A stretch of 44,186 nucleotides of DNA from an uncultured Porphyromonadaceae bacterium (GCA_945231345.1 CALYOL010000001.1:1-44186), one strand, 5' to 3'. Counted from the first letter of the stretch, positions 11,711 through 44,186 are shown. Notes: generated from the letters alone by a model not told the origin. Translations and numbers: made by a program.

Positions 11711-11718
11711 TAAATTTG
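11711..11718 (+). promoter_or_regulatory. -7 promoter box (TAAATTTG) for the mce-mmd operon
   Basis: TAAATTTG lies 108 nt upstream of the mce ATG. The leader contains two small hairpins at 11739-11759 and 11761-11776. Confidence 0.45.
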
Positions 11719-11825
11719 CATCGTGAAAAAGAGGGTGAAGTGTATCCGAGAGATACACTCCGCTCGATTTTGAGCGTAATTAACTGATTATTAACTTATT
11801 TATTTACAAAATAATACCATTTGTT

Positions 11826-23682: not shown

Positions 23683-23685
23683 GTC

Positions 23686-24807: not shown

Positions 24808-25552
24808 GCTCTAATAATCTTAAGCTGTCCTCGGCTTTTTGAAGTGTTTCAGGCTTGCCTATGTCAAACCAATTATATGGCTTTTCCGGCATGAATGATA
24901 CTATTTTCAGCCTTGAAATAGCACTCAGATAAAATGGGAATATTGGGAAGACATCAGTCGTAGCATAATGCCGAATTTCCTGTAACACTGACGGATTAAT
25001 AATATGAACTCCTCCAAAAGCGCAGCTATCATAATCATCGTAGTCAGTGAAATTTTCAGGAATTGACTCTCCTGTCTTTAGGTTTCTCCAGCCGTGCAAT
25101 ACATGCGTATTGCGGTCAAAATATATCTGACGTGAAGACTCTCTATGCGCTACAAGTAGAGTTGCGTCTGCACCATATTTCTCGTGTTTGGCAAGCATCT
25201 CATTGACGTCAAAGTCCGTCAGAATATCTGCATTATGGATTAGGATTGGCTCTTCTCCTTTAAATAAGTTAGCTGCATATAGCAATGCCCCACCCGTTTC
25301 CATAGGATGCTCAACCTCGTGAGAAATTAGGATGTTGACTCCAAAATTATCATTTTGCGCAAGGAAATCTATTATCTGCTGCGCAAAATGATGTACATTT
25401 ATCACAAAGTCCTTTATCCCGGCATTTTTCAGCTTTAGTATCACTCGCTGCAACATTGGCACACCACACACAGGCACCAACGCTTTTGGATGATGCTCTG
25501 TAAATGGCTTAAGACGTGTACCAAGACCTGCTGCAAAGATAAAAGCACGCAT
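24797..25552 (-). CDS. Sugar-1-phosphate nucleotidyltransferase, MurU-like
   Basis: MRAFIFAAGLGTRLKPFTEHHPKALVPVCGVPML parallels MurU/GlmU-type G-x-G-T-R-(x)-P...PK.L. It overlaps glf by 11 nt and sits 2 nt downstream of the AmgK-like gene. Confidence 0.7.
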   Translation of the reverse strand: MRAFIFAAGLGTRLKPFTEHHPKALVPVCGVPMLQRVILKLKNAGIKDFVINVHHFAQQIIDFLAQNDNFGVNILISHEVEHPMETGGALLYAANLFKGEEPILIHNADILTDFDVNEMLAKHEKYGADATLLVAHRESSRQIYFDRNTHVLHGWRNLKTGESIPENFTDYDDYDSCAFGGVHIINPSVLQEIRHYATTDVFPIFPFYLSAISRLKIVSFMPEKPYNWFDIGKPETLQKAEDSLRLLEHEK

Positions 25553-25554
25553 AC

Positions 25555-26973: not shown

Positions 26974-27011
26974 TATGGATTAACCTTTTTGTGAGAATTA
27001 CGCATTGCTGA

Positions 27012-29699
27012 CTAACCCTTTAGCGCTGCGAGGGTCTGTTCTATGTTGGCTATCTTAGTTTCTGCATCTGCCTGTTTGCGGCGTTCTACTTCAACTACCT
27101 GAGCCGGTGCATTGTTCACAAAGCGTTCATTTGATAGCTTCTTCATTACTGATGCAAGGAAACCGCGTAGATAGTCAAGTTCCTTATTCAGTCGCTCTAT
27201 TTCTGCTTCTACGTCGATATTCTGCGCAAGTGGTACATTAAACTCTGTCGTGCCTACCATAAATGAAGCTGCTGCCGCATCTTTTTCTGCCACTGCTACA
27301 ACCTCAGACAAGTTTGCAAGTTTTGCTATCACTTCTTGATATGACGGCAGCTCATCACCTATTATTCTCAGGCTGAGGGCATCTTTCTGCGGAATATTCT
27401 TGGCTGCTCTTACACCACGAACTCCGGCGATAATTTCCTTTGCATACTCTACATCGTCAAGGAGTTTCTTATTCACTTCACCTGCAACTGGCACCGATGC
27501 ATACATTATTGACTCGCCTTCTTTGCGCTCTGCAAGGTGCTGCCATAGCTCCTCCGTGATAAATGGCATAAATGGGTGGAGCAGACGCAGCAACTTGTCA
27601 AGGTACTCAAGTGTCTGACAATATGTTTTACTGTCAATAGGCTCGCCATATGCCGGCTTTACCATCTCAAGATACCATGATGAATATTCATCGCGGAACA
27701 GTCGATATACTGCCATAAGTGCCTCATTCAGGCGGAATTTACTGAAAAGGTCTTCTATTTCAAGTATTGCCTCGCTTAGTTTTGAGTCAAACCACTCTGT
27801 TGCAACTCGCGAAGCCTCTGGCTGGGGTATATCTGCTGTCTGCCATCCCTTTATTAGGCGGAATGCGTTCCATATCTTATTGCAGAAAAATTGTCCCTGT
27901 TCACACAGTTTCTCGTCAAACATGATATCGTTGCCTGCCGGTGCTGATAGCATCATACCCATTCTTACACCATCTGCTCCAAAGTTTGCAATAAGTTCCA
28001 GTGGGTCTGGTGAATTGCCCAGCTGCTTTGACATCTTGCGACCTATCTTATCGCGAACTATTCCTGTGAAATACACGTTGTTAAATGGTTGCTTGCCTAC
28101 GTATTCATAGCCTGCCATTATCATTCGTGCTACCCAGAAGAAGATGATATCTGGTCCGGTTACGAGCGTTGCAGTTGGATAATAATACTTTATCTCTTCG
28201 TTACCCGGATTGTTGATACCGTCAAAAAGGGTGATTGGCCATAGCCAGCTTGAGAACCATGTGTCAAGTGCTCCCTCATCTTGGCGCAAATCATCAGCTG
28301 TGAGTGAAAGTCCTGAGGAGGCTACAGCCTTTTCAAGTGCCTGTTCCTTGCTTTCGGCCACAACTATCTGCTCTTTTCCTTCTGCATCGTTATAGTAGTA
28401 TGCAGGTATACGATGACCCCACCACAGCTGGCGACTGATACACCAGTCTTGGATATTCTCTATCCATAGGCGATATGTTGTTTTATATTTTTCTGGTACA
28501 AACTTGATGATATCATCCATCACCGGCTTCAGAGAAATTTCTGCAAAGTGACGCATATCTATAAACCACTGAAGTGACAGGCGTGGCTCTATCGCAACCT
28601 TCGTGCGCTCTGAGAAACCAACCTTATTTGTGTAGTCTTCTATCTTCTCAAGCAATCCGGCAGCCTCAAGGTCTTTCGCTATCTGCTTGCGCACGTCAAA
28701 TCGGTCCATGCCAACATACATTCCTCCGGCCTCGCTTACTGTTCCGTCTTCATTGAAAATATCAATGGTCTCCAGGTTGTATTTCTTGCCCAGCATATTG
28801 TCATTCTTATCATGTGCCGGAGTAACCTTTAGGCAACCTGTTCCAAAGTCAATTTCTACATATCTGTCTTCTATTACTGGTATTACACGACCTACAAGCG
28901 GTACTATCACCTTTTTACCCTTGAGCCACTGGTTTTTTGGGTCTTTTGGATTTATACACATCGCCGTATCGCCCATTATGGTCTCAGGACGTGTTGTTGC
29001 TACTACCGCATATCTGCGACCCTGAGCATCACGGTGTACAACCTCTTGCTCATCTCCGGTTTCACCGGTCATGTCATCATCTGCAATATAATATTTCAGA
29101 TAGTATAGCTTTGACTGCTCTTCCACGAAGAAAACCTCATCATCTGAGATTGCAGTACGGTTTTGTGGGTCCCAGTTAACCATGCGCAGTCCTCGATAGA
29201 TTAGTCCTTTCTCATAGAGGTCACAGAACACCTTTATCACGCTCTTGCTGCGTGTTTCATCCATTGTAAAGGCTGTACGGCTCCAGTCGCATGAAGCTCC
29301 AAGTTTACGAAGTTGCTGTAGGATTATCCCACCATGCTTATGTGTCCATGCCCATGCATGCTCCAAAAACTGCTCGCGAGTAAGGTCTGTCTTCTTGATA
29401 CCTTCTGATGCCAACTTTGCTATCACCTTTGTTTCTGTTGCAATAGACGCATGGTCTGTGCCCGGCACCCACAGAGCATTCTTTCCCTCCATACGAGCGC
29501 GGCGGACAAGGATATCCTGTATCGTATTATTTAGCATATGACCCATATGAAGTATGCCCGTCACGTTTGGTGGCGGTATCACTATAGTGTACGGTTCTCT
29601 ACTATCTGGCACTGACTTAAACAAGTCGTGCTTTATCCAATATTCATACCATTTCTCCTCTACTTCTGAGGGACTGTACTTTGATGCTAATTGCTCCAT
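27012..29699 (-). CDS. valS: Valine--tRNA ligase
   Basis: 895 aa. It has [13 protein letters not shown] (HIGH), KMSKQLGNS (KMSKS), an editing domain, and a C-terminal coiled coil. Confidence 0.97.
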
Positions 29700-29743
29700 A
29701 TATGGTCTATTTTCTTTTTATTATTATTCAAATATTTAATTTA

Positions 29744-29751
29744 CAAAGTTA
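29744..29751 (-). promoter_or_regulatory. -7 promoter box (TAACTTTG) for valS
   Basis: caaagtta on the plus strand, 45 nt upstream of the valS ATG at 29699. Confidence 0.45.
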
Positions 29752-29901
29752 CTGCTTTTTTCTCATACAACAAAAACTACCTCACAAATTCAACACCATT
29801 TTCACAAAAACAATGCCATGCTATATATTATGCTGAATTTGGTCGAATACATAATCGTCTAATAATCTTCATTTACTCTATTTACACAAGCAAACTGGCA
29901 T

Positions 29902-30708
29902 TTACCAATATTTCTTGCACAATTTCTCATATCGTTCTGTGGATTTATATTCCCTGAGCCATACATTCAGGCTATCGCGCAGTGCTACATTGTCCTTCGA
30001 CAATACCCAAGATTGAAACTGGTTAAATGATATGGCTGTAGATATGTCAAGCTGAGGATATTCGGCAGCTAATGATTCTGCGTACTTCATATTCACCACC
30101 GCCTGCTTCCTCTCACCCAAGGCTGTGAGGATTATTAGCTGCTCTGCCCCGTATTTCTCGTCTTCCACAACGTATATCGTGTCGCCTATCTCCTCTGACA
30201 GATTATGGAGGCGTTCCACCGCAAGCGAACCCTTTGGCACCCAAATGGTGTCTCCCGCAAGGTCGTTTTGTGTAAAACCCTTTTCTATAGTTCCCTTTAG
30301 CCGTACAAGCACCTGATAGTCAATGTATATTGAGTCTGTATAGAGATATTTCTCCTTCATTTTCGTTGTCACCGGTATATCTGCTATCACCACATCAAAA
30401 AGGCTCTCATCAAGCTGGCGCAAGGCGGAATTTAGGTTCGTAAATGCGGAGATTTTCACCGGGCGACAATGTTCTGAGCATATTTCTCTGATTAGTTCAT
30501 AATGAAACCCACACAGCGTATCCTCTCGCATCGATAGTGCTATTGGCGAAAGTTCTATCGCAACATTTAGAGTATCTCCATCCGCTCGTCCAATTGCATT
30601 TGACCTCGGCGACGAACATTCTCTCAGACCCCACATCGCCGCCAGCACTATTATCAGCAACACGATGTATATCGCAATTCTACCTGTCTTTAATACCTTC
30701 TTTTCCAT
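29902..30708 (-). CDS. Membrane-anchored solute-binding-protein-like (SBP_bac_3/MltF N-domain-like) protein
   Basis: An N-terminal TM anchor (IAIYIVLLIIVLAAMWGL) is followed by a type-2 periplasmic binding fold pattern (LNVAIE...GFHYELI...FDVVIADIPVT...YLYTDSIY...). There is no transglycosylase domain. Confidence 0.6.
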   Translation of the reverse strand: MEKKVLKTGRIAIYIVLLIIVLAAMWGLRECSSPRSNAIGRADGDTLNVAIELSPIALSMREDTLCGFHYELIREICSEHCRPVKISAFTNLNSALRQLDESLFDVVIADIPVTTKMKEKYLYTDSIYIDYQVLVRLKGTIEKGFTQNDLAGDTIWVPKGSLAVERLHNLSEEIGDTIYVVEDEKYGAEQLIILTALGERKQAVVNMKYAESLAAEYPQLDISTAISFNQFQSWVLSKDNVALRDSLNVWLREYKSTERYEKLCKKYW

Positions 30709-30726
30709 CCCGTTTTTCTCTGCATT

Positions 30727-32688
30727 TTAGTTCGCAAAATCAATCGTCAAGCCAAGCAAAAAGCGACGCGGATTTAGAGGATAATGCGGCATAGAGAAAT
30801 AATTATCCTCTGTCATTCCCTGATTGACGTGCGACATCATGACGTAAAAGCGTACCTTGCTCAACTTCATGTTTACGTATGCGTTCATGTAGGGAAATCC
30901 ACCACACTCCACCTCGTCTTGATTATAAAAAGTCATAGTTGCCGGCTGATAGGCAACGCTCTTATACTTTGTGTAATACGAACAATCAATACCTAATTGT
31001 ACATCAAGCACCCTCGCCACCTTAAACGTCAGATAGGCATTGCTGTATATCGAAAGCTTTGGCAGAGGTATCACACCCTCTTCCGTCGATGTCTGATACG
31101 TTATTTCATTATCCCAGTTCAATGCGCGATATCCAAGATGCTGGCTCAGTGTTGCATTAAACACTTGTACACTACCACTATGCTGAACCGGCTTACATGT
31201 TTTGTCAAAGTAGATATAGTTTTGTACATTTTCCACTCCGATATTTAGCCGGGTATTTGTGTATGGCACCGTCAAGATTCCACCCACGCGAACCTTGCGT
31301 ATCTTTGAAAAGTCATTTTTCCAAATAAAATGATTTGAAACATAGTTATTATAAAGATATGGCGGTGCTACGTTTTCAAACTTCCCATACGCTGTCAGTC
31401 CTACTGTGTCACCTAACAATGGAAAGCGCGTATTGATTTTTCCGTCTATCTTTACCTCCCCGGATGCCGGACCTACAAGTCCTATCTCTCCTTTGACATC
31501 ATAAGTTAGATAAGTACCTTGCTGCTTGGTCAGTTGAGCGCCTACCCACATCAGGTTTTGCTTTTCCTTTGCCTTGATATCAGGAAATGGATTCGGTGTC
31601 AGTCCCGCTGCTTGCTCTGTGCCTGTCACCGTGTCCGGAGCCTGTGTATAGCTGCGAATTTGATGCGTCACATACGCCGCAAGTCCTGCCTTCGCATACT
31701 TGTTAAAACCCTCAAGAAGAGAAATACCTACAGTATTTGTCAATGCCCAATATTGTGTACGGTCATCCGTCCCATTTGGATTTATATATTGGTTTTCCCA
31801 AAATTCCTTACCCTCAGACAGGTTATCATTCTTGAAAATATGCTTACTCGCATCATACTTCATAGTCCATATAAAACTGGATACTGGTACGTAGGTCTTC
31901 ACCACCGTTGTATCGTCTAAATGCTCCTCCTTGTAAAATCCAACCTTATACCTGTGATTCATAAGAAATTTCTGTGCCACGATTTTTGAGTGCGCCTTTG
32001 AAAGATTTGTAGGTATTGTCTTGAAATCAACCTTTGTACTACCACCCTGTATTTCAGCCGGGTCTGTTATATACAAGTCATCTTCAATACCACCATTTTC
32101 CTTGTTCAAAAAATTATAGTGATTAAAATACCCCTGAAACTCATATCTGTCACCTATGTAAGAGCCATTAAATCCCCAACTAAGGTCTTTGTCTGCCTGA
32201 TAGTTATAGCTGCCCTTTGAATATAGATAATCAAGCATTGCTCCCACCTGGGCATTTTTGTTTATATTTCCGGAAAATGTTCCCGAAAGCCTGTCCTGTC
32301 CATTATCTCGGCTTCCTCCCGTATTATAAGACAAAAGCGTCATAGGTATACGAGTATTATAAAACACCTGCTCATAAAAATTTGGCATCCAAGCACTTAA
32401 CGCATCTTGAAAAAAGAAGTCTGATGTTGGCTTGCGGTCAAAATACTTCAAATTAAGTCCTTCGGCTCCCAAGTTTCCTGTTGTAGCGTATGCTGGATAA
32501 GCCATCGCTGCCACAGACCGTAGATGATAGTTTTGAAAAAGAGTATCTATCGTAGACTCCTCCCTCAGTCCCAATGGCTCATTTATGCTCCACGCATAAG
32601 ACGGTAGCACAGGCTCTGGCTTCTCAGCATATACATAACACACTGATAAACCAATTATTATAGATAATATTATCGACTTTATTCTCAT
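30727..32688 (-). CDS. Putative outer-membrane porin (Bacteroidota 'putative porin' PF14121-like beta-barrel)
   Basis: 653 aa with a signal peptide (IIIGLSVCYVYA). It is Tyr/Asn/Gly-rich with alternating amphipathic strands throughout. The family call comes from general resemblance, not a diagnostic motif. Confidence 0.6.
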   Translation of the reverse strand: MRIKSIILSIIIGLSVCYVYAEKPEPVLPSYAWSINEPLGLREESTIDTLFQNYHLRSVAAMAYPAYATTGNLGAEGLNLKYFDRKPTSDFFFQDALSAWMPNFYEQVFYNTRIPMTLLSYNTGGSRDNGQDRLSGTFSGNINKNAQVGAMLDYLYSKGSYNYQADKDLSWGFNGSYIGDRYEFQGYFNHYNFLNKENGGIEDDLYITDPAEIQGGSTKVDFKTIPTNLSKAHSKIVAQKFLMNHRYKVGFYKEEHLDDTTVVKTYVPVSSFIWTMKYDASKHIFKNDNLSEGKEFWENQYINPNGTDDRTQYWALTNTVGISLLEGFNKYAKAGLAAYVTHQIRSYTQAPDTVTGTEQAAGLTPNPFPDIKAKEKQNLMWVGAQLTKQQGTYLTYDVKGEIGLVGPASGEVKIDGKINTRFPLLGDTVGLTAYGKFENVAPPYLYNNYVSNHFIWKNDFSKIRKVRVGGILTVPYTNTRLNIGVENVQNYIYFDKTCKPVQHSGSVQVFNATLSQHLGYRALNWDNEITYQTSTEEGVIPLPKLSIYSNAYLTFKVARVLDVQLGIDCSYYTKYKSVAYQPATMTFYNQDEVECGGFPYMNAYVNMKLSKVRFYVMMSHVNQGMTEDNYFSMPHYPLNPRRFLLGLTIDFAN

Positions 32689-32959: not shown

Positions 32960-32994
32960 GAAAAAATAGAGACGCGACTATTAATCGCGCCTCT
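32960..32994 (-). terminator. Rho-independent terminator closing the 33-44 kb minus-strand operon
   Basis: On the minus strand, agaggcgcga/tcgcgtctct forms a 10-bp stem (one mismatch) with a 7-nt loop, followed by ATTTTTT. Confidence 0.7.
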
Positions 32995-33060
32995 AAAAGT
33001 AAATCTCAGAAAAATGTAGGGTATACGCTATATTGATACACCCTCTTTGGTGTCAATTAT

Positions 33061-33120
33061 TTATATTGCTAATGCAAGTGATACGGCTGCCGACAATGCA
33101 AGGATTCTGTTCAGTTTCAT
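33061..33120 (-). CDS. Possible 19-aa hydrophobic micro-ORF (MKLNRILALSAAVSLALAI*)
   Basis: ATG-initiated ORF between the DUF1573 gene and the operon terminator. It is signal-peptide-like and could be spurious. Confidence 0.2.
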   Translation of the reverse strand: MKLNRILALSAAVSLALAI

Positions 33121-33171
33121 ATTATCTAAATTTTTAGATAATAATCTATTTTACTAATGCATTATTTATCG

Positions 33172-33621
33172 TTATAAATCCGTCTCCAAGTCATATTTCT
33201 TCAATTCGCCACGAATAAAAATGCGTGTATATGAGCGAGGGTCGTTTGAATACACCGTTACGGATTTGCGAAATCTGCCAACCGGTTGTCCATACCCTTT
33301 ATAGTTCACGGTGACTATTCCGGAATCACCCGGCTCTATAGGCGTTTTGGGGTATTGCGGTCGAGTGCAGCCGCAGCCGGTTGCGACGTGTAGGATTACC
33401 AGCGGCTGCTGTCCTGTGTTGTAAAAGCGGAAAGAGTGCGACTTTAATGTGTCGTTCCCTACCGGTTCAAAACTGCCAAAATCATATTCTTGCTCTTTGA
33501 ATTCAATCTTGGGATTTTGCGGTGTGTGGTTTTGTATTGAATCGGGAATATTTATCTTCACTCCTTGTGCAGAGGCAAGGAGTGAGGATAAAAACAGTAT
33601 TATATGTGCAGCGGGTTTCAT
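33172..33621 (-). CDS. DUF1573 domain protein (exported, Ig/ASH-like fold)
   Basis: It has a signal peptide (ILFLSSLLASAQG). F.F.N.G..PL.I..V...CGCT.P.....PI.PG..G.I.V.Y is the DUF1573 signature, including CGCT. Confidence 0.8.
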   Translation of the reverse strand: MKPAAHIILFLSSLLASAQGVKINIPDSIQNHTPQNPKIEFKEQEYDFGSFEPVGNDTLKSHSFRFYNTGQQPLVILHVATGCGCTRPQYPKTPIEPGDSGIVTVNYKGYGQPVGRFRKSVTVYSNDPRSYTRIFIRGELKKYDLETDL

Positions 33622-33632
33622 ATCACCTGCAA

Positions 33633-36002
33633 TTATAAATCTTGTGATATAGCAGTTCCCACAATGTATGGACCGCCTTTACGCTCGGAGGGATAATATA
33701 AATTGATATATTTTGAGCGAGCAAAATATTTCTTTTCGCCATCGTATTTGCAATAAGGTTTAGCGGTTACAGATAAGGCATCAATGCCGGTGTTGGGAGA
33801 CTTAGGTCTGTGTTCGGAAATAAACGTCGTGATAATGGTGTATTTACCGGCACGGCATAGTCCGTCAAACGGTATAGAGTATTCTTTTTCAAGGATAACT
33901 TTACCATCAGGAGCTTCCAATCGGAATTCCATTCCCCATTCTTTAATACGGGTAGCGTTTTTGAGTTCCACAACTGTTGTGAAGGCATATTCGGTGAAGT
34001 CTTCACGTTTTTTCCCTTTGAAAGCTTCTTCACCGTATTCTTCGAGATAATATTCCCAAACCTCTACGGAAAGTTCTCTGCCAAACCATTGATAGCACTT
34101 GGGCTGTGAAATTATGGGAGTTCCGGGTGTAACAATCATTGAATTATTTCGATATTCAGTGGTCATTCCCGAGCCTTTATCATAGATACACGGCACAACT
34201 TCATAAACGCCTACAGTTTCACTCAGTCCTGCTTTTTTGAGATTAACGGAAAATTTATATGTTTTGTCGGCAGCCAGCTCTTCGTCTATTACCTCTTGCT
34301 TGAATTTGCCGCTTCCACTTGCGATTTCACCCTCGTAGATACGCAATGCGGGACGCTGATTCATTTTATCAATCTTAGGGAAAATGAAGAAAGTTTCAAG
34401 TTTGTCAAAATTCAAAGATGTGTTAATCGCCAATTCGTCTCGAGTGCCAATCATCGGAGTTCCAGTCCAAGGGTCGATAAGCGGATTGCCGTTTTCGTCT
34501 TCCAAGACATATTCCACTTCCTCGGTAGTCAATTTTGACTTAGTTTCTTTATCATTTATTTCCGCCTTCATATTAATCATTGCCGATACCTCCTTGGTGT
34601 TGAAGTTTAAGTCGCCGAGGCTCACAGCCAAAGGTCCCAGTTTCAGCAAGCCTTCGGCAAAGCCACTGTAATTGGCATATAAACCAGCGTTGAAATTCTG
34701 ACGGTCGATAATAGTATAGTCGTTGAGCGATTCGGTTTCCAAAGATGCTTTAAAACCCACCTTACCTTCGATGCCTATGACACCGCCAACACCGCCTAAT
34801 TCACTTCCCACCAAAACACCGACACCAATCCTGCCACGAAGCCAAAAATCGGCACTGCCTCCAAATTGGATATTGGTAACATCGGAAAATGGTGGTTTCT
34901 CGGGATTATACACCAATTTATTGTCGATTTCACTCTTTTCTCCTTTATTAATAATACATCCGTTTCTGAGGGTTTCCGACCGATATTTCATTTCGGCAAC
35001 ACCATAACCCAATATGGTATATCCCACAGAAACATCCACTCTAAACATCACACCGGCTGGAAAAGAAGGGATGCTGAGAACGGGATTGATAGACTTAACA
35101 CTTTTAGTAATTCTCATTAAATCTTTGACAGCCTTTAGAGAATTCATCATACCTCTGATATCCCCGACATTTTTGGGAAAACTTGCAAGAGATTTAGATG
35201 CTTCTTCAGGATTATTACCATAGCCTATGAGCATCTTAATATTTCTTTCGGTATAAGTGTCGTTCCATTCTTCTTTATATTCTTTTACGAGGTCTTTATC
35301 TTCATGAACTTTAACCACCTCTGTAGATTCATAAGTAAGGTCAACATATATTACTTTCTTGTTGGGGAGGTCAAAAGACTTGTTAAACTGAAATCTTGTC
35401 TTGTCCTCATGTACGCCATCGGCGCGTGCACCGGGCTCATATAGCGACATATCGACAAAAACGGAGTCGTTTTTCCAAAACCCGGGGCGATTGATTGAAG
35501 GGGTGGACCGTGATTCTTCTGTACTGTCTTCAACAAAATCGGACACTCCGGGCACTATATAGTTGAAGTCGAGACGCATCTTCAATATTTTGAACACGTT
35601 TTCTTCATCGGTAGGTTCATGCTCGACACGAATCATTCCGGCGTCGCGGGTAACGGAACGCACTTTTGAACAAATTCCGAGAGGAATTGTCTTGGAACAA
35701 TTCGCAGCGATGTAATGTCCTTCTTTCGGCACCCATTTATCCGGGAGATTATCCATAAACCAGATGACGGAATCGTTCATCATGGCAATATAGTTTTGCG
35801 GCTCTCCATTAAGGGCAGTTACATCGTCGTGGTATTGGTATGTAAATTCGCCATATTCACTCACTTCGGTGTAAGGTTCTTCTTTGCCTTTATCTTCTTC
35901 CGTTACTACATATTCCTCCATGCTCAATTCGCATGACGACAACAGTAACGCTGACAAAAGAAGACCATTTCTAACTATCTTATTCATTATATATTTTTGC
36001 AT
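33633..36002 (-). CDS. Large lipoprotein of unknown function (789 aa) with a Gly-rich amphipathic block
   Basis: It has a lipobox (LLLSSC, Cys24) followed by acidic residues (ELSMEEY). I recognise no domain. A Gly/Val/Ile-rich segment, GGSADFWLRGRIGVGVLVGSELGGVGGVIGIEGKVGFKASLETE, lies at nt 34740-34862. The start could be 36002 or 35987. Confidence 0.75.
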   Translation of the reverse strand: MQKYIMNKIVRNGLLLSALLLSSCELSMEEYVVTEEDKGKEEPYTEVSEYGEFTYQYHDDVTALNGEPQNYIAMMNDSVIWFMDNLPDKWVPKEGHYIAANCSKTIPLGICSKVRSVTRDAGMIRVEHEPTDEENVFKILKMRLDFNYIVPGVSDFVEDSTEESRSTPSINRPGFWKNDSVFVDMSLYEPGARADGVHEDKTRFQFNKSFDLPNKKVIYVDLTYESTEVVKVHEDKDLVKEYKEEWNDTYTERNIKMLIGYGNNPEEASKSLASFPKNVGDIRGMMNSLKAVKDLMRITKSVKSINPVLSIPSFPAGVMFRVDVSVGYTILGYGVAEMKYRSETLRNGCIINKGEKSEIDNKLVYNPEKPPFSDVTNIQFGGSADFWLRGRIGVGVLVGSELGGVGGVIGIEGKVGFKASLETESLNDYTIIDRQNFNAGLYANYSGFAEGLLKLGPLAVSLGDLNFNTKEVSAMINMKAEINDKETKSKLTTEEVEYVLEDENGNPLIDPWTGTPMIGTRDELAINTSLNFDKLETFFIFPKIDKMNQRPALRIYEGEIASGSGKFKQEVIDEELAADKTYKFSVNLKKAGLSETVGVYEVVPCIYDKGSGMTTEYRNNSMIVTPGTPIISQPKCYQWFGRELSVEVWEYYLEEYGEEAFKGKKREDFTEYAFTTVVELKNATRIKEWGMEFRLEAPDGKVILEKEYSIPFDGLCRAGKYTIITTFISEHRPKSPNTGIDALSVTAKPYCKYDGEKKYFARSKYINLYYPSERKGGPYIVGTAISQDL

Positions 36003-36018
36003 ATTCGGTTATATTTTT

Positions 36019-36726
36019 TTAATGACTTGTTAATTCAATCGGGGCAGAAGGACTTCCATGGGTTTCCCCGTCGAAGTCTAAATAAACGGGCAATTTTTTG
36101 AGCATAAGATTCTCTTTATCGTAAATGGCAAAACGCACAAGTTCAGGGCGTGTGGGCTCAAGGTCGTCCCATTCAAGATGACCGTAAATACGCATTTGTA
36201 TAACTTCTTTGTCTTTTAATTCAATAGGTTTGCCTATTCCTCGAAGTTCAGAACCCACAAATGCAACCACCTTCTGCTTTTCAAAATCCACGGGCACACC
36301 ATCGATTGTTGCCGAGAGATATGCCACCATATCGTTGGAAAACATGTGGATGTTGATTTCCCACGGTGCTAACACGAAAACATGACAGAATGCCATCATT
36401 TCATTCATCACCGAAGTTGCGCTGACAATGGTTTCGCCCTGGCTCTCCGCAATAATAGTGTCGTTCTTGATGTATGCGATTTCTTCGTTTGACGACCGAA
36501 AGAAGACTTCGCGATTGCTCACCGTATCGGGAGTAAACACGGGATGGAGCACAAAAGAATCTCCCTGCGTTACAAATACCGTATCGCGGTCTAATTGCAT
36601 GTCATAAGCCATTTGAACATTATCGTCAAATTCCATGTCAATGAGTCCGCACGACGCAAGTAGCGAAGCCATTAGGAGGAGGCAGGATAATGGAGATAAG
36701 TATGTGAGTCTCTTTTTCACAGTCAT
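36019..36726 (-). CDS. Lipoprotein with an N-terminal Big_2-like Ig domain and an unknown C-terminal beta domain (235 aa)
   Basis: It has a lipobox (LLASC, Cys26) followed by GLIDMEFDD. VFVTQGDSFVLHPVFTPDTVSNREVFFRSSNEEIAYIKNDTIIAESQGETIVSATS fits the Big_2 pattern. Confidence 0.75.
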   Translation of the reverse strand: MTVKKRLTYLSPLSCLLLMASLLASCGLIDMEFDDNVQMAYDMQLDRDTVFVTQGDSFVLHPVFTPDTVSNREVFFRSSNEEIAYIKNDTIIAESQGETIVSATSVMNEMMAFCHVFVLAPWEINIHMFSNDMVAYLSATIDGVPVDFEKQKVVAFVGSELRGIGKPIELKDKEVIQMRIYGHLEWDDLEPTRPELVRFAIYDKENLMLKKLPVYLDFDGETHGSPSAPIELTSH

Positions 36727-36777
36727 TGTTTATCAGTTATAAGGAAATTATTATTAAAACCTTGCAGTAAATGCTAA

Positions 36778-39144
36778 TTATTTAGTTTTTTCTTTAGGGG
36801 CTGTTACAACGACAGTATTTGAATTGGTTGTGGCACGTCCGTCTTTATATCTGATTCTGACATAATACTCTGCCGTTTCGCCTGCCGAAAGGAGATTGTC
36901 TTGGAATGTCAGAGCATCGGAGCTGACAGACATTAAGAATTTATGACGTCTGTCTTTTGGTCCTTTTCTGTAAACACAGAAATACCACTCGCCTTTGTAT
37001 GGAAGATTTTTGTCTGTTTCCCACACAATTTTTGTTTTCTTGTTTTTTTCGTCATAAACGCCAATCAACTTGATTTTCCAATCAAAAACGCGCTCGCCTT
37101 CGAAACGAGTTGAATAGACCAAACTTAGCCCGCTTGAAATTCCTGCAAAAGTGAACGATTCCATAGCATATTCGTAGCGGGTGCGGCGTGCGTATTCCGG
37201 GACATCGATTACGTTGAGCAAATTGCCGGCTTGGCGAAGTGAATCGGCATCATAAGTGCCAATCGTGGTCCATTCTTTAGTGTTGGCAATGCGCCGCATC
37301 AACACATGGTGTGATATTTGCTGCTCGTTGCTGCACACCCATCTCATATATATCCCGCGTACTTGGTCGACCCATAGGGAGTCGATGTGTGGAGCGTCGG
37401 GCTTAATCATGCTTGGGCGAATCACTTGCAGCGGAGCAGTGTATTCACCTTCGTTTGAAGCGAAGTCCACAGCACGCACCTTGTAATAGATGTATTTCTG
37501 GTTTACATCTACCGCAAGCGTATCGATAAATGTTGTGTCTCTCAACAAAGAGCCCGAATGCATTGAGCGCAACATGAATTCGTGAGTAGTGTCGTTGGCA
37601 AAAGCCAGTTCATAATAGTCAACGTCGGCAGATGGGGCATCCCATGATAATTTTACCGCACCGGCTTGGTTGTCAACTATTTCATAGCGGAAATTAGTAG
37701 GTGCTTCGGGCGCCTTTAAGTCTGAGATACGCAAAATATGCGTCATTGAATAACTTACATTTTGAATCGAGTCGTAAGCCGCTACCGCAACCTGGCTTGT
37801 GCTGATTTTTGACACATTAACCGTGCAAATGGTGTCGTTAACGGGAATCAAATCAGGAGTCAATTCCACCCATTCCGCTTTGTTATCATCGCTTGAGCGT
37901 TGATAGTAAAGAATTTTGTAGCCGATGAAGTCAGGCTCAATAGTGTCTTTAGAGAAATGGAAGTCGGCATATACATCTTTAGAAAGGTCGTCGGGATTTC
38001 GTCGGTCGATAACAATCGCCTTCAACAGGGGTGGACGAGGAGCCTCCAAGTCGGGCATTGAGGCAACATGATAGTTTTTAGCCGCAATCAAGTCGCCATA
38101 AGTGTCATATCCCGAGATGCGGTATTCATAAGTGCCGGGGCGCACATTGTCGTTGATGAAATTGTCTAATCCCTCGTCATGAATATCCCGCATCATGATG
38201 AAAGGATTGTCGTTGACCTTAGTCCAATTCTTTTCACCCATAGCACGGCGGTGGATGTCGAACGATGAGAATCGCTCGGTCCTTTCCCACCAGATACGCA
38301 ACTGGTTGATACCCACAACAGAGTCTCCCATAACTGCTTCGTAAGGCTCGGGAACGTAGGGCTTATTCTCTATTTCATCGATATATCCCACACGGAATAT
38401 CAAATTCTTGGTAGAGTCAAACTCTGCCGGTCTGACAATGTAGCGATATTTAGCCTTCTTTTTAACATTTCTGTCAACGAAACGCATCGCCAACATTTCG
38501 GCTATATCCTTACGCCACTCGCTTGCCAATACAGCCATACCGAACCTGAATTGCTGGTCGTTATAGACATCGAGCAACGCCCCCATTTCGCCTGTTCCGT
38601 ATCGCGATTGGTCTTGGGTAAAACCGCCCTCGCTGTAGAGAGTGCCTAAGGCAATGGCAGCCACGGAATCTGTTTCAGGATAAATTGCTCTAAACCGCTC
38701 TAAGGTTGCCGGTTTCAGATGCATGGCAAGTGTGTCGATACGTATTGCATCATTCTGTTTTTTGCCATCGGGCAACGATATGCGATAGATGTTTACCCCC
38801 ACGGCGTTAAGATATTGCCAACTCACATAGTCTTCCGGAGCCCAACGGAGCACAATGCTGTCGCCGTATGAGCGGGCGAGAAGATGGATTCTGCTGTCGT
38901 AATTGCGATGCGTAGCATCCTTGCGGAAAAATTCGGCTGTATCGCGCACTTCTCCGGGCAGATAATTGAGCGTAGTGTCGGGCTTCCATACATATATGGT
39001 ATCTTCGGCACTTACTTCCTCCAAATCCTCGGGGTCGATAGGAACCGAGAGGTTATTGTCGGGAGTAACACCTTTTTGCGATGCGGCAGAAGCCACCAAA
39101 ATGCTCGCTATAAAAAAGAATAATATATTTCTGCTTTTTTTCAT
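36778..39144 (-). CDS. Exported multi-FN3-like repeat protein (788 aa)
   Basis: It has a signal peptide (ILFFFIASILVASAAS). About six modules each show an FN3-style W...Y.Y/Y.V pattern, several introduced by D(L/A)xAPxxP linkers, for example DLKAPEAPTNFRYEIVDNQAGAVKLSWDAPSADVDYYELAF...YYKVRAVDFASNEGEYT. Confidence 0.75.
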   Translation of the reverse strand: MKKSRNILFFFIASILVASAASQKGVTPDNNLSVPIDPEDLEEVSAEDTIYVWKPDTTLNYLPGEVRDTAEFFRKDATHRNYDSRIHLLARSYGDSIVLRWAPEDYVSWQYLNAVGVNIYRISLPDGKKQNDAIRIDTLAMHLKPATLERFRAIYPETDSVAAIALGTLYSEGGFTQDQSRYGTGEMGALLDVYNDQQFRFGMAVLASEWRKDIAEMLAMRFVDRNVKKKAKYRYIVRPAEFDSTKNLIFRVGYIDEIENKPYVPEPYEAVMGDSVVGINQLRIWWERTERFSSFDIHRRAMGEKNWTKVNDNPFIMMRDIHDEGLDNFINDNVRPGTYEYRISGYDTYGDLIAAKNYHVASMPDLEAPRPPLLKAIVIDRRNPDDLSKDVYADFHFSKDTIEPDFIGYKILYYQRSSDDNKAEWVELTPDLIPVNDTICTVNVSKISTSQVAVAAYDSIQNVSYSMTHILRISDLKAPEAPTNFRYEIVDNQAGAVKLSWDAPSADVDYYELAFANDTTHEFMLRSMHSGSLLRDTTFIDTLAVDVNQKYIYYKVRAVDFASNEGEYTAPLQVIRPSMIKPDAPHIDSLWVDQVRGIYMRWVCSNEQQISHHVLMRRIANTKEWTTIGTYDADSLRQAGNLLNVIDVPEYARRTRYEYAMESFTFAGISSGLSLVYSTRFEGERVFDWKIKLIGVYDEKNKKTKIVWETDKNLPYKGEWYFCVYRKGPKDRRHKFLMSVSSDALTFQDNLLSAGETAEYYVRIRYKDGRATTNSNTVVVTAPKEKTK

Positions 39145-39163
39145 ATATCAAAAGTATTGTATT

Positions 39164-42100
39164 CTAATAATTATTATAAAACCAGTTGTTTACATTCTTG
39201 CATGAGAACAATCTAGACGGGTTGTTAATCGTGTAAACATAACGAGACCAACGCGGACCCATATTCAAGTATGCCCTATTGGAAACGGTGTATTCCGCTT
39301 TCTTGAAGTTGTAGGCATTCACGCGGAACGATGTAACATTTATTTTTGTGATATTGTTCCAGCGTGGGATAAAGTCAAGGTAAGGGCCACGAGTGCCTTT
39401 GGTGTAACGCCCATTCTTGTCAACCCCCGTGATTACTTGATTATAATTTATTTCAACAATATTGTGTCGATTGTTGCCCACAAGACCCAACAAAATATCC
39501 TCGCTTCGTTCTTCCTGAGGACGAGTGTAATCTTTGGGTATATTGTCGAAACTCGACCACATCGTAGTCTTCCCGCGAGTAGCGGCGTTGTTGAATGGAG
39601 AGCCCCAAAGAATTCCCAATTGATAATACGGCACCTCTATGCGAACATTAGAATTTAGTCGGGAGGTGGCAGTAATGTACACACCGGCATTAGCATTCAT
39701 CAACTGTTCCACGGCGTTTGCTGCAGAGGAGTAGAATTCACCTTTTCCGTAACTCAAAATTTGTTGTAACTCACAACGGAATTTGGAGTCAAATTCATCG
39801 ACAGCGGAATAAACGGCATAAAGGTCCAAAATAAGATTTATTGCACGAGAGTCATCGTCTTTACCTGACGTAAATAACTTGTATGCACGTTCTCGTCCGC
39901 CGAATGCGTAGTTGTATTTTGCATCAGTCATTTGCGGGAGAGGGAACTGACAATCGTTATTCCACTGGGATTGATCATAAATAGACATTGCTTTCACCTT
40001 TTCGTAGTCGGCCATAGAGCCGTAACTTGTCTTGTAGGCGCCCTCGTAAACGCCTCCGCGGTCGTAATAGATGAGCGACTGAGCCGTGGTGGCATTTACC
40101 GCCAGACGTTTGTTTGTAAGATTCCAACCGCCAACAAGTCCGTAGTTACTCATATAAGTAATATAGGTGTACGGGTCTTGATAACGCATCGGATTTACTC
40201 CTTCATCAGTCATATATTTCTTATAGAATGAGAGACCGCGAGCATTGCCTTTCCAAGCGGAGGTTTTCATGGTGACACTGTTTAAGCGAATGCCAACGAA
40301 AGGCTTCTCGTAGTCAACCTGCTTACCCTTGTTATAGCCGCAATGGTAATACCCGTCTTTCGACTCCAGCAACAAATTGACTATATTGGTTGTGTCGGCG
40401 ACTATCACTGTAGATACCCTCCTTACGGATTTCTGTTGCCTTGGGTCCCATACAAAGGTTACTTTCGATTCGGAGCGCGAAACCACATAGTTGAGTTGCA
40501 GACGATAGTCGGAGTTATTATATACTTTAGCGTCAAACTCGCCACCTTTGACGGTCATATTGCAAGTGCTGTCGGTTACAACCCAATATGCGTCTTTTTC
40601 TTCGACTAATTGCCAACCTCTATTTCTATCCATATATCTTTCCAACTTCCAGCGCAATTTGCCTTTCTTGAAAGTTTTGCCTGAAATGTCGCTCAGGAAT
40701 GCGATGTTTGGAGACTTAATATCCGCACTGTAGGCAGGGATGTATTTGTCGTGCTTAAGTTGGTTGTAATTCGACGGATATGCGATAGCCACATACTGTT
40801 GCAAATCTTCCGGATTGTCGTCCAACTCCTGTTTCGGACCGGTGCAGAAGTAATACACCTTTGTCTGCTCCCATTTCACATTTTCATATTTTTTCTTGGT
40901 TTCGTTCCACTTAAGAGGGTCAACTTCTTGTCCGTTTTCTATTTCTTTCGCCCAGCCGACAAACACCATGCGATAGAACTTGTTAGGATTGAGTTCAGTC
41001 ATATTTATTTGATGGTTGAAGCGCGATGTGCCTTTGATTTTAAATCCGATGCAACGGTCGTAGTTTTTCAGATTATTTGTCGCTTTGCTGTATTCATAAA
41101 GTAATACCGTGGTGTTCATATCAAATACGAATGTGCGACTTGCTTGTGCTTTGAGTTTTTCTTTGTCGCCATTGAAATCTTTAGCCAATCGATTCAATTC
41201 GGTTTCGTCGAGCACACGGAAGTGTTCCTTGATAGGGGCTTCGGTGTTGATGTATGGCGTAATGAAAAACTTTGGATTGATTGCATTTTCTTTTTTCCAT
41301 CCATTGGCCTTAATAGTATCTCCCATAGAGCACTCACCAAAGAGTTTGAAATTGTCAAGGGCGTTGCCGTAGAAAAGATCGCAACGGTCGCCACATTCAA
41401 ATTCAAACTTTCTGTTAATCTTGACAAGACCTGCCAGCAAATTCAATTTCACACGAGCCTCACCGGTAAAGTAGGTTGGATTGGGAAGTCCCATTCTAAA
41501 CACACCACCAATTCCGGCATCTACGATGTCAAACTTTTTGTCCCAGAATCCGAGGTTGACATGTATTCCAAACTTGGCATATATGTAGGCATACAACTGT
41601 CCTTCGGCATACCAGCCTTTGTAGCCGGGTGTGCGAGGAATATTCATACACGGTGTGTTACCCATATTGCGAACACACACATCAAATCCTGCCAATACAC
41701 CCATGTCTCCATAGAACAATCCGAGGTTGAAGTCGAGGTAACCCCAAGCGGAAGCACCCATCATAACTCCTCCATTGACTTGCGCCTGGAAATCTTTGAG
41801 AGCGGCAGTGCGGGCATTGTTAGCCTTGCTAATGTCGGCACTTTCCACACCGCTTCCCTTTGTGGAACCATCGAGGAACTGACGAATCTTGCTCGGAATG
41901 GGCGGCAACTCACCGTTGCCCGGCAATTCGTTACCTACACAAAGATATGCGTTGGCACCGATGTTTACACTCACAATCTTGGATTTGAAATCCACTAACA
42001 CGAATTTGCATCGCAAGTCTTCGTCGGGCTGTCCCAGATAGAGATGCCATTTCACTTTGTCGAGTTTCTTCCCTTTCTCCTTCATCGTGATGCGGAAGTC

Positions 42101-44186
42101 CAGGGCGACAGACCCTTTGCCCACCGTTGGTTTCTCGGGGGTTTTAGCATTGGTTTCTTCATCGGCTTTTGATTCCGACTGGTCGTCGAATGCCGCTTCC
42201 AATCCTCCTTTTGCGTTGCTTACAGGTTTCTCCATTTTTGGGTTGAGCTTGCCCTGCAGGTAAGCCAACTCTGAAGACAAAGCAGTCATTTTTTCGCTCA
42301 CTCCGCCTATGCCATCGGCTTTGGCATCTACAGTGATGTTGAGTGCAAAGTATTTGTCGTTTGTGTCCTCTTGATAAACGATAGTGGCTTTGGATTTAAT
42401 CAAATCATTCACGGCACTCAGGCGGCCTGTAAGCATAAACGTGGTGAGTCGTTTGGTCTCCTTGTTATAAACAACTGTCATTTCAAAATTGCCGTCCATC
42501 AAGCCTTCTCCGGCAGATGAACAAAGTCCCATTCCTGCCACCACTCCAATGACGCCTTTTTGAGGCTCGGCTTCTGTTTCCGATTTGCGAACGCAGTTGA
42601 AATAGAATCCGGCAGAGATACTTGTGATAGCAACAGGTGGAATTTCAATGCCGTAGGAACTGCCTAACGAAGCATAAAAATAGCCCCACTTGTAGTCTTT
42701 GAGTTGGTAATATCCACCCGTTGCTTCAGCGGTGAAGAGGTCGCCGGGCATGGTGAAAGAGAGCGTTCCCTTGTAGCCTTTTCCATATTTGGCGTCATCA
42801 CTTGCTCTCAACGTGCCACTCAACTTCATTCCGGCAAAAGAAGAATTAAACGACGCTTCATCAAACTTGGTACTTTCGTACTTAAAGGCGATTTTGGAGA
42901 AATCAAAGTTCTTGGCTACGTTAGTCACACCGCTCAATTTAGCACTGATTGTAATCCCGGCATCGGCACTGATGGCAAGACCGTCGATGAATTTTACGCC
43001 GCCTTTTACCGACATTGTCAACAACTCGTTTTTGAAGTCGAAGTCGTATTTTTCAATAGAAAATTCAAACGGACCAAGTTTCTTTGCCATTGAAGCCAAC
43101 GACCACTCTCCGGTGCTGAAATAGAATTGGTTCTTGATGTTAAATTCCTTCCCTTTGTAGAGCGTCGTAATCTTTTTCTTAGTGTCGGTCGCGGTTTGCA
43201 ATTCTTTGATATCTTCAAACTGCGATTTCCATACCGGACAGTTGGCAAGACGCATTTTTGAGAAATGGATATCCGGCAGTTCAAATGGAAGCGGCAAATT
43301 CTTCATCTTGCTCTTCATCGCTTCGCCGCCGATGCTGAGGTCGCCGGTCAAGAGCAATTCTACGCGGGTTTTCAATTCTTCCTTTTCGGGAACCGCCTCA
43401 ACGAGCATATAACTTAACTGCTTGTCAAATTCGGCGGTTGCAAGCAGGAAGTCCAGTTTTAATTTGTCCACTTGCTGCACTTTGAAAACGTAGGCATAGT
43501 TTCCTGCCTTACTGTTCTTCAAGTTGTTTATTTTAAGGATTTGGCAAGCATAACCTAACTTTCCGTCAAGCAGCGGAACATCAAACTTTCCACTGAATCC
43601 ACATTCATTGAAGTCGTTTTGGATAAATGTGGCGTGCACCTTGTCCAGCGAGAATGCCCAGCCACCGGCTTTACCGGTTTTGGCAGAAAGGATGTCGTCG
43701 GCCTCGATTTCGAGAGTAACGCCGGAATCGTCGAAGAACATATTTTTTGTGGCAATCTTAAGACGTTTGTCGCCCGAAGTGCCAAATTCCAACGATTTGG
43801 GCATTTTCACGCTTATTTCTTTGATATAAAGTCCCTGCCATGTGTTTATCTGTCCGGCAATCAGGGTCCTTGATTTGTCGTACTTGTTAGGGAATTTCCC
43901 CATTTGTTCCGAATTGCGAAAAATAGAGTGGTCATACACTATATTTTGTGCGGTGAATGTCCAGCCCGGGAGGTCTTCCGCTTGGAATGGGTCGATGGAC
44001 ACATTATCCACCATCCAGTCTTCCCAATCTCCGATGCTTGTCTTGATGTTTAACACCGGACATTCTGCTTGTGCCACTCCATTGATGTCTTTCTTCAATC
44101 CCGGGATTTTCATATCCACATCTACACCCAGAAGTTCAAACTTATCGGCATGCCATGAAACATAGCAACCATCTTTTGGGTTAATC
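39164..44186 (-). CDS. Giant protein of unknown function, 5'-truncated by the window edge (at least 1673 aa visible)
   Basis: A single uninterrupted ORF. The track starts it at GTG 44119, but the same frame has no stop from 44120 to 44186 (...INPKDGCYVSWHADKFELLGVDV-DMKIPG...) and no signal peptide follows 44119. The true start is therefore probably outside the window. I found no recognisable catalytic or nucleotide-binding motifs. Confidence 0.8.
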   Translation of the reverse strand, partial: INPKDGCYVSWHADKFELLGVDVDMKIPGLKKDINGVAQAECPVLNIKTSIGDWEDWMVDNVSIDPFQAEDLPGWTFTAQNIVYDHSIFRNSEQMGKFPNKYDKSRTLIAGQINTWQGLYIKEISVKMPKSLEFGTSGDKRLKIATKNMFFDDSGVTLEIEADDILSAKTGKAGGWAFSLDKVHATFIQNDFNECGFSGKFDVPLLDGKLGYACQILKINNLKNSKAGNYAYVFKVQQVDKLKLDFLLATAEFDKQLSYMLVEAVPEKEELKTRVELLLTGDLSIGGEAMKSKMKNLPLPFELPDIHFSKMRLANCPVWKSQFEDIKELQTATDTKKKITTLYKGKEFNIKNQFYFSTGEWSLASMAKKLGPFEFSIEKYDFDFKNELLTMSVKGGVKFIDGLAISADAGITISAKLSGVTNVAKNFDFSKIAFKYESTKFDEASFNSSFAGMKLSGTLRASDDAKYGKGYKGTLSFTMPGDLFTAEATGGYYQLKDYKWGYFYASLGSSYGIEIPPVAITSISAGFYFNCVRKSETEAEPQKGVIGVVAGMGLCSSAGEGLMDGNFEMTVVYNKETKRLTTFMLTGRLSAVNDLIKSKATIVYQEDTNDKYFALNITVDAKADGIGGVSEKMTALSSELAYLQGKLNPKMEKPVSNAKGGLEAAFDDQSESKADEETNAKTPEKPTVGKGSVALDFRITMKEKGKKLDKVKWHLYLGQPDEDLRCKFVLVDFKSKIVSVNIGANAYLCVGNELPGNGELPPIPSKIRQFLDGSTKGSGVESADISKANNARTAALKDFQAQVNGGVMMGASAWGYLDFNLGLFYGDMGVLAGFDVCVRNMGNTPCMNIPRTPGYKGWYAEGQLYAYIYAKFGIHVNLGFWDKKFDIVDAGIGGVFRMGLPNPTYFTGEARVKLNLLAGLVKINRKFEFECGDRCDLFYGNALDNFKLFGECSMGDTIKANGWKKENAINPKFFITPYINTEAPIKEHFRVLDETELNRLAKDFNGDKEKLKAQASRTFVFDMNTTVLLYEYSKATNNLKNYDRCIGFKIKGTSRFNHQINMTELNPNKFYRMVFVGWAKEIENGQEVDPLKWNETKKKYENVKWEQTKVYYFCTGPKQELDDNPEDLQQYVAIAYPSNYNQLKHDKYIPAYSADIKSPNIAFLSDISGKTFKKGKLRWKLERYMDRNRGWQLVEEKDAYWVVTDSTCNMTVKGGEFDAKVYNNSDYRLQLNYVVSRSESKVTFVWDPRQQKSVRRVSTVIVADTTNIVNLLLESKDGYYHCGYNKGKQVDYEKPFVGIRLNSVTMKTSAWKGNARGLSFYKKYMTDEGVNPMRYQDPYTYITYMSNYGLVGGWNLTNKRLAVNATTAQSLIYYDRGGVYEGAYKTSYGSMADYEKVKAMSIYDQSQWNNDCQFPLPQMTDAKYNYAFGGRERAYKLFTSGKDDDSRAINLILDLYAVYSAVDEFDSKFRCELQQILSYGKGEFYSSAANAVEQLMNANAGVYITATSRLNSNVRIEVPYYQLGILWGSPFNNAATRGKTTMWSSFDNIPKDYTRPQEERSEDILLGLVGNNRHNIVEINYNQVITGVDKNGRYTKGTRGPYLDFIPRWNNITKINVTSFRVNAYNFKKAEYTVSNRAYLNMGPRWSRYVYTINNPSRLFSCKNVNNWFYNNY

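Follow-up and report, generated by a model that had tools for sequence, protein, structure and literature searches.

In two-partner secretion (FhaC/FHA, CdiB/CdiA) the gene of an outer-membrane barrel adjoins and is coupled to that of a giant Sec-exported protein, whose N-terminal part is conserved and whose C-terminal part is variable. MtrCAB is a three-gene module that includes another such barrel, chaperone-usher systems employ the usher barrels FimD and PapC, BspA-type leucine-rich repeat (LRR) proteins, such as BspA of Tannerella forsythia, are exported by type IX secretion (T9SS) through a C-terminal sorting domain (CTD), and type V pilus operons mix lipoprotein subunits with a T9SS-CTD-tailed member, which in the mfa operon is Mfa5. 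Here we describe a string of genes at the end of a 44,186-nucleotide stretch of DNA from an uncultured Porphyromonadaceae bacterium (GCA_945231345.1 CALYOL010000001.1:1-44186; this whole stretch is called the window below). The logic of its core, which consists of a predicted barrel, a giant protein and a protein with fibronectin type III (FN3) domains, resembles that of two-partner secretion, MtrCAB and chaperone-usher systems; membership in two-partner secretion, TamB/AsmA, usher, SusC/SusD, FimA/Mfa and phage families failed in every test that was run. As judged from gene content and its persistence, this is a conserved, unannotated, multi-component exported system, which is kept in hundreds of Bacteroidota species and is more than a product of chance. 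Its function would be, in the reading that we favour and to which we give an even chance, that of a barrel-anchored, glycoprotein-decorated surface adhesin or fibril, standing outside any characterised family.

The window holds five genes of this system, numbered g3 to g7 and all located on the minus strand. They are the 3′ part of the giant gene g3 (39164..44186, with 1673 sense codons and no stop before the window ends), and the complete open reading frames (ORFs) of the FN3-array protein g4 (36778..39144, 788 aa), lipoprotein g5 (36019..36726, 235 aa, a Big_2-like immunoglobulin (Ig) domain followed by the domain designated X), lipoprotein g6 (33633..36002, 789 aa) and the DUF1573 protein g7 (33172..33621, 149 aa, with a signal peptide). 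Intergenic gaps across g7-g6-g5-g4-g3 are 11, 16, 51 and 19 bp, so the original prediction of five minus-strand ORFs packed within 11–51 bp of each other, with the giant open to the window edge, holds. The string is closed on the same strand by a Rho-independent terminator at 32967..32995 (13-bp stem with 6 G-C pairs, then a T-run), which is the strongest terminator-like site of the region and is kept in a relative, L030. This part of the earlier account also stood. Inside the string the minus strand has just one further site, a weak one of 7 pairs at 37109-37093. By reading of the sequence, g4 and g7 were seen to begin with type-I signal peptides and each of the lipoproteins to have a lipobox, LLASC in g5 and LLSSC in g6, which agrees with the claim that every complete product starts with one or the other; lipoboxes and A↓Q signal-peptide sites are kept, by the same reading, among cassette orthologues.

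The part of the operon lying beyond the window was seen in the closest relative, a 21.4-kb contig L001 with a giant (P0001, 2437 aa) that is 97% identical to the window giant. A hybrid two-component regulator (TPR-HisKA-HATPase-REC-AraC) is followed there, in divergent orientation, by g1 (959 aa), g2 (571 aa), the giant and g4-g7. By comparison with P0001 the full length of the window giant is about 2437 aa, and approximately 764 codons of its 5′ part lie outside the window. Thus, the predicted operon consists of seven genes, not of four to six as first supposed, and the window contains genes 3 to 7, that is its downstream two-thirds. The stop codon of g2 overlaps the start codon of the giant as TAATG, by which the two genes are predicted to be translationally coupled.

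Conservation of this arrangement was followed in two sets of loci. When one genome was scanned for each GTDB species, 299 relatives of the giant emerged, and 80 loci were kept (81 with L001). All those with a taxon label belong to Bacteroidales (Prevotella, Bacteroidaceae, Muribaculaceae), mostly to rumen and gut metagenome-assembled genomes (MAGs); the cultured isolate Prevotella sp. 885 is among them and carries the cassette through g6, with its giant on NZ_NOVE01000010 at approximately 72240-80200. The order g1-g2-g3-g4-g5-g6 holds in nearly all of the 80 loci, wherever the contig extends far enough, co-occurrence and constant order of the genes being a check that the original prediction had named; g2 is present in 75 of the 81. 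When the window giant fragment was compared by phmmer with 1.84 billion representatives, 1762 clusters (50% identity) were found with a cut-off of E<=1e-3 and 529 with one of E<=1e-30, and a word-indexed search registered at least 224 homologues of ~2400–2900 aa among the candidates scored. Distant relatives that bear a name, all of them 'hypothetical protein', come from the cultured Fulvivirga marina (its giant homologue is WP_202855245), from Saprospiraceae and Prevotellaceae, and from a 'Phycisphaerales' MAG. A metagenome scan with a distant subfamily (25–30% mutual identity) added more than 450 relatives among the matches listed, from soil, sediment and freshwater, and hidden Markov models of the seven families were run on 80 of these loci. 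In this environmental set g2 was found in 62/80 loci and g4 in 65/80. All three genes of the triad occur together in 52, and in 52/52 they are co-oriented and adjacent, their order being g2-g3-g4 in 41, g3-g4-g2 in 7 and g3-g2-g4 in 4. Adjacency that survives permutation of the gene order is strong evidence of functional coupling. The remaining genes, g1, g5, g6 and g7, were detected in just two of the 80 (L119 and L120), which by their near-orthologous cassette-model scores look like members of the gut/rumen clade. Comparison of the two sets therefore defines the barrel, the giant and the FN3 protein as the invariant unit, with the other four genes being additions of the gut/rumen clade. The earlier idea of a multi-component surface structure around the giant gains from this a co-conserved unit with export signals, placed in no characterised system and with the giant as its conserved centrepiece; its composition has to be corrected, since the core includes the barrel, whereas the two lipoproteins and the DUF1573 protein are specific to a clade.

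No family in Pfam or NCBIfam and no sequence or profile match in the PDB was found for g2. AlphaFold2 modelled it (pLDDT 75.5) as an antiparallel barrel of 26 strands that has no plug, periplasmic or extra domains, and in Foldseek searches this model was matched best by MtrB (6r2q_B, E=2e-11, TM 0.51), followed by the FimD/PapC ushers (E=1e-10), LptD and SlpA. All of these are large-lumen outer-membrane barrels, and on the strength of this model g2 is assigned to outer-membrane beta-barrels. A barrel gene that adjoins and is coupled to the gene of a giant Sec-exported protein with conserved N-terminal and variable C-terminal parts is what one meets in two-partner secretion. However, 26 strands, the lack of POTRA domains and the absence of an Omp85/ShlB Pfam match (PF03865/PF08479) separate g2 from its transporters, the giant has no two-partner secretion domain (Haemagg_act, PF05860) and is not a beta-helix, and the FN3 partner has no counterpart there. 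MtrCAB shares with the triad its three-gene composition and a barrel that is the best structural match of g2, and in both a barrel of 26 strands could surround one partner while another is docked to it at the surface; unlike MtrCAB, no product carries a CxxCH haem motif, sequence homology is absent and the partners are as large as 780 and 2400–4600 aa. As to chaperone-usher systems, the likeness of g2 to the FimD/PapC barrels is accompanied by the presence of a DUF1573 protein, whose fold, going by the Pfam clans, we take to be a PapD/ASH-like Ig. On the other side, g2 has neither the plug nor the N- and C-terminal domains of ushers, no match to Usher (PF00577) or PapD (PF00345/PF02753) was registered in Pfam, pilin-like subunits are missing, and the DUF1573 gene occurs in only 29/81 loci and is absent from environmental triads.

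The only recurrent neighbour of the cassette is the hybrid two-component or AraC-type regulator, found at 47 of the 81 Bacteroidales and 21 of the 80 environmental loci, and it is this adjacent regulator that probably controls expression. In L001 a GCATTGTTTT(C/A)(-/T)CAT-like motif occurs twice, ~80 bp apart, at 3095-3192 between the divergent regulator gene and g1, and these may be sites where the regulator binds; when the region upstream of g1 in the same contig was searched for an invertible promoter, only weak AT-rich inverted repeats emerged. Such regulators, the two lipoproteins, a large-lumened barrel free of a plug and hosts that degrade polysaccharides in rumen and gut are all compatible with a regulated surface complex for capture of nutrients or glycans. 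It would resemble a polysaccharide utilisation locus (PUL) devoid of SusC/SusD, where lipoproteins and Ig, FN3 and LRR modules bind the substrate and the barrel imports it. We consider this unlikely. No TonB box, plug, SusC/D, carbohydrate-active enzyme or binding module was matched in any member, a protein of 2400–4600 aa is unnecessary for uptake, and the environmental triads do without the lipoproteins. In the same line, SusC/SusD PULs differ from this cassette in that TonB_dep_Rec, Plug or SusD matches neither occur within it nor recur in its flanks.

The giant itself, both as the window fragment and at full length, has no Pfam or NCBIfam family at threshold, and for the giant too the PDB gave nothing by sequence or profile. 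Its N-terminus is, by reading, a cleavable signal peptide with the conserved Bacteroidota A↓QE site, not an inner-membrane anchor, and ten cysteines are invariant. Two parts can be distinguished by their conservation. Within the Bacteroidales family the first ~1900 aa are 45–68% identical and the last ~500 aa only 18–49%. In the window the former is represented by a conserved all-beta core (40736..44185, minus strand; residues 1-1150 of the window fragment, 765-1914 of the full-length protein) and the latter by a variable C-terminal head (39164..40735, minus strand; residues 1151-1673 of the fragment plus the stop codon). AlphaFold2 folded residues 765-1914 with pLDDT 76 and pTM 0.47 into more than 40 antiparallel strands, long (12–20 residues) and almost exclusively beta. 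Comparison of this model with the PDB and BFVD gave TM<=0.13 throughout and no fold could be assigned; ApoB-100 beta-belt, SlpA and LptD were nominally on top, and neither TamB nor VPS13 was matched. Recurrent, if marginal, similarity of the core was seen to DUF6603 (PF20248). It is confined to ~150 residues (full-length positions ~1151-1300, 42578..43027 on the minus strand); here P0001 reaches E=0.007, and three more members of the giant family reach 4e-6 to 2e-5. Scores of these four (15–26 bits) remain below the gathering threshold of 27 bits and cover only positions 2-150 of the 502 in the model, and the family is itself uncharacterised; a literature search on DUF6603, PF20248 and related operon descriptions brought nothing. 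A supposed similarity of the giant to g6 was not supported (hhalign probability 1.9%).

Strands of the giant core and of the g2 barrel proved to be equally amphipathic, and this measure does not separate a membrane-embedded sheet from a soluble one. Together with the nominal matches to ApoB-100, LptD and SlpA, the similarity of the g2 barrel to LptD and MtrB, and parts of the giant model that read as five strands plus a helix, it suggests another interpretation. The module might be a conduit for lipid, lipopolysaccharide or other hydrophobic cargo in envelope biogenesis, with the sheets of the giant serving as a groove or belt and the barrel as a port, in a logic akin to LptD or TamAB. The probability we assign to it is small. 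TM values of these matches are about 0.1, no AsmA, DUF490 or Lpt family was found in Pfam, and TamB/AsmA proteins differ from the giant both in these domains and in the uncleaved N-terminal inner-membrane anchor. No inner-membrane partner is conserved, and swappable heads, LRR arrays and the presence of two or three paralogous cassettes per genome are difficult to reconcile with a housekeeping transporter. The same evidence disfavours the envelope-spanning bridge that was once listed among the options: the signal peptide of the giant is cleavable, and neither an ATPase nor an inner-membrane component recurs in the flanks of the Bacteroidales and environmental loci.

The variable head behaves as an exchangeable module. 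In relatives of 4400–4600 aa the conserved ~1900 aa are kept and the head is replaced by BspA-type LRR arrays (DUF285/LRR_5, E=1e-137 to 1e-149), which argues for a ligand-binding, exposed head. Mid-size giants of 2650–3050 aa, their heads included, and distant relatives of ~1400 aa gave no Pfam match. By their ends the long relatives thus resemble BspA, and they differ from it in that the giants have no C-terminal sorting domain and the window giant has no LRRs. In at least eight genomes the cassette is present as two or three paralogues whose giants differ (L017/L058/L066, L026/L040, L042/L053, L033/L045, L054/L067, L055/L057, L016/L073 and L071/L078). Some of them combine a giant of ~2400 aa with a clearly longer one, which suggests that alternative heads form a repertoire. 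A separate BspA-type LRR gene was noticed just downstream of the cassette in a few close relatives (L004 24686-26017; L018 from ~23370 onward). This combination of a base that is conserved and an exchangeable head that bears repeats is what surface adhesins show. A barrel combined with a giant whose N-terminal part is conserved and C-terminal part variable could also deliver a toxin on contact, as CdiB/CdiA do, with the C-terminus being the toxic part. This possibility is very improbable and was rejected: the giant is not followed by a small cytoplasmic immunity gene, since the genes downstream encode conserved exported proteins, no toxin, VENN or two-partner secretion domain was found, the C-terminal region keeps family-wide motifs and is not polymorphic, and the alternative heads are LRR arrays.

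The third member of the triad, g4, adjoins the giant in 71 of the 81 Bacteroidales loci and in 65 of the 80 environmental ones. Its FN3 designation, proposed earlier, is backed by Pfam only below threshold (fn3, E=0.003) and gains support from a profile search against the PDB, in which FN3 domains of titin and RPTP were matched; the Big_2 label given to g5 is likewise sub-threshold (E=0.012). The motif D(S/T)(A/I/L/V/M/T) is the sequon of the general Bacteroidota O-glycosylation system. In g4 it occurs 16 times against 3.0+/-1.6 in shuffled sequences (none of 2000 shuffles reached 16), and the enrichment is kept in 71 orthologues and 58 environmental relatives; in the giant the count is at background and in g1 near zero. 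Thus, g4 is probably heavily O-glycosylated. Similar enrichment is characteristic of Bacteroidota S-layer glycoproteins, and the Foldseek matches do include the S-layer barrel complex of SlpA, which makes one think of a coat, where glycosylated g4 and the giant tile the surface and the barrel anchors them. We find this quite improbable: an S-layer protein usually has a single gene copy and very high expression, while here several paralogous cassettes have dedicated regulators; homology to TfsA/TfsB-type proteins was not found; and g3 and g4 are without the T9SS CTDs that the known S-layer proteins of Bacteroidota use.

Accessory components of the gut/rumen clade evolve differently. Divergence of g1, g5 and g6 is much faster than that of g2, g3 and g4, as expected for exposed parts. 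Protein g1 (~950 aa) has an N-terminal signal peptide and Ig-like repeats and gave no above-threshold match in Pfam or NCBIfam. Tails of its orthologues approach Por_Secre_tail (PF18962) with E=5e-5 to 6e-3 and 20–24 bits at a cut-off of 27, and the L001 tail is of the same YDLxGRRV...GIxIVK type (YDLYGRRV...GIHIVK...KKVIKK), shortened and with no profile match. On these grounds g1 may carry a T9SS sorting domain. The five window proteins showed no PF18962/TIGR04183 match in a test for T9SS cargo, and their C-termini are not CTD-like. In having lipoprotein subunits mixed with a T9SS-CTD-like-tailed protein the extended cassette is reminiscent of T9SS cargo and type V pilus operons; unlike in FimA/Mfa pili, g5 and g6 have no match to the FimA/Mfa families, the core triad has no equivalent and the CTD-like matches are sub-threshold.

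Among the seven families, compared pairwise by hhalign, only g1 and g5 have a domain in common, namely domain X of ~115 aa (36022..36366 on the minus strand in g5). The alignment of g1 residues 21-127 with g5 residues 121-234 has a probability of 99% and E=3e-18, and g1 contains one N-terminal copy and one copy before the tail. A profile search with this domain gave only 19 fragments, all from the same families, and no functional lead. In nine loci (e.g. L014 286-3291) g1 is preceded by a second g1-like gene, whose product likewise begins with domain X. Among the Bacteroidales loci g5 is present in 71/81 and g6 in 55/81. The latter evolves fast: its identity to distant orthologues is 19–24%, as against ~45% for the giant. 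Its N-terminal part of ~130 aa is conserved, and neither Pfam nor the PDB gave a match. Residues that follow the lipidated cysteine are acidic and kept in orthologues, C-(T/E)LSMEE in g6 (C-ELSMEE in the window) and C-GLIDMEFDD in g5, in agreement with what was first noted. It had been taken for the surface-export signal of lipoproteins (lipoprotein export signal, LES), whose published register, a polar or positive residue and then at least two acidic ones in succession at about +3 to +6 (C-X-K-(D/E)2, or SDDDD at +2..+6, or SDDFE), is reported to be position-sensitive (PMC5080379) and is not matched here, which weakens this argument for surface export.

The only window protein with an above-threshold match in Pfam or NCBIfam is g7, a clear DUF1573 protein (PF07610, 99.3 bits at a cut-off of 26.1, E=1e-28) that also matches the OS_HP2 (seleno)protein model (E=1e-17). 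It was found in 29/81 loci and is therefore an optional member of the cassette. Its C-G-C motif (33367..33375, minus strand) belongs to a CxC present in all 27 orthologues. Its counterpart is the UGC selenocysteine motif under which DUF1573 selenoproteins are listed (PMC9312934), and this hints that the otherwise uncharacterised domain has a role in thiol redox; g7 may serve thiol chemistry for the cysteine-rich giant. No profile or structure match led to a characterised system, and the original prediction was not overturned on that account. Walker A, HExxH and CxxCH motifs were not found in the products by a motif scan, and the window proteins have no Pfam or NCBIfam match to families of the type VI secretion system, T9SS, fimbriae, SusC/D, TamB or AsmA. 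The markers reported as missing (Walker, HExxH, type VI secretion, fimbrial, SusC/D) are indeed missing, with the reservation that outside the window g1 has a tail resembling a T9SS CTD.

Based on these data one can outline how a barrel-anchored surface adhesin or fibril might be put together. Sec would carry all parts across the inner membrane. The g2 barrel would be dedicated to the giant as its outer-membrane port, anchor or sheath, and we infer that the two proteins interact. The core of the giant would form the base or stalk, with the variable head facing outward and binding ligands, in long relatives through LRR arrays. The role of glycosylated g4 would be that of a stalk, a spacer or a partner in a sheath. 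In Bacteroidales of the gut and rumen, T9SS-delivered g1 and the lipoproteins g5 and g6 would dock to this structure, and domain X may be the docking module of g1 and g5. Several points weigh against such a scheme. Placement of all products at the surface is what we infer, and post-cysteine acidic residues of g5 and g6 lie outside the published LES register (PMC5080379). The giant has no T9SS CTD, two-partner secretion domain or other known secretion signal, so its crossing of the outer membrane is hypothetical, and neither LRRs nor another binding domain recognisable by Pfam is present in the window giant. The model of its core reached a pTM of only 0.47, and long amphipathic strands fit equally well a membrane-embedded or lipid-binding sheet. 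Finally, matches of g1 to the T9SS CTD are below the Pfam cut-off, and in the closest relative, L001, the tail is shortened. A bolder version of the adhesin scheme can also be considered, in which the triad is a Bacteroidota-wide export-and-anchoring system and a new type of secretion: a dedicated 26-strand barrel, with no sequence relationship to the Omp85, usher, LptD or MtrB families, would thread or export a giant of novel fold independently of T9SS, using Sec energy alone, and subunits delivered by T9SS or made as lipoproteins would be a later addition of gut Bacteroidales. We regard it as tentative and rather doubtful.

Some other candidates and features of the region should be mentioned. 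A phage origin, or a phage structural module, was rejected, as PHROGs gave only generic Ig and FN3 matches, the Foldseek comparison with BFVD stayed at TM<=0.13 and no relative was found in IMG/VR. A 19-codon ORF MKLNRILALSAAVSLALAI between g7 and the terminator (33061..33119, minus strand) resembles a bare signal peptide. It was rejected as a member of the system because of no conservation in relatives and is probably a remnant that lies outside it. In L030 this position is taken by a decayed peptide with a T9SS-CTD-like motif at its end (IYTIDGIRH...GVNIVRMSDGTIRKIIRK); a gene once located downstream has probably been lost. Genes further downstream (22046-32688 of the window) are seemingly unrelated to the operon and encode a Porin_10 protein (30727-32688), a solute-binding protein, valyl-tRNA synthetase, a RapZ-like/APH protein, a nucleotidyltransferase, UDP-galactopyranose mutase and a GT2 glycosyltransferase. 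The lowest G+C content of the window (0.366 versus ~0.43) was registered at 10001-12000.

Bacteroidota dominate gut and rumen communities, and it is their surface machinery that decides adhesion, recognition by phages and the immune system, and niche occupancy. Core components of the module described here have no anchor in Pfam, NCBIfam or the PDB, and the existence of cultured carriers of a homologous giant makes the question of their role directly testable. If the barrel does export or anchor the giant, this would be a new route of outer-membrane assembly beside T9SS and lipoprotein export, and it would explain how very large proteins devoid of a CTD reach the surface of Bacteroidota.

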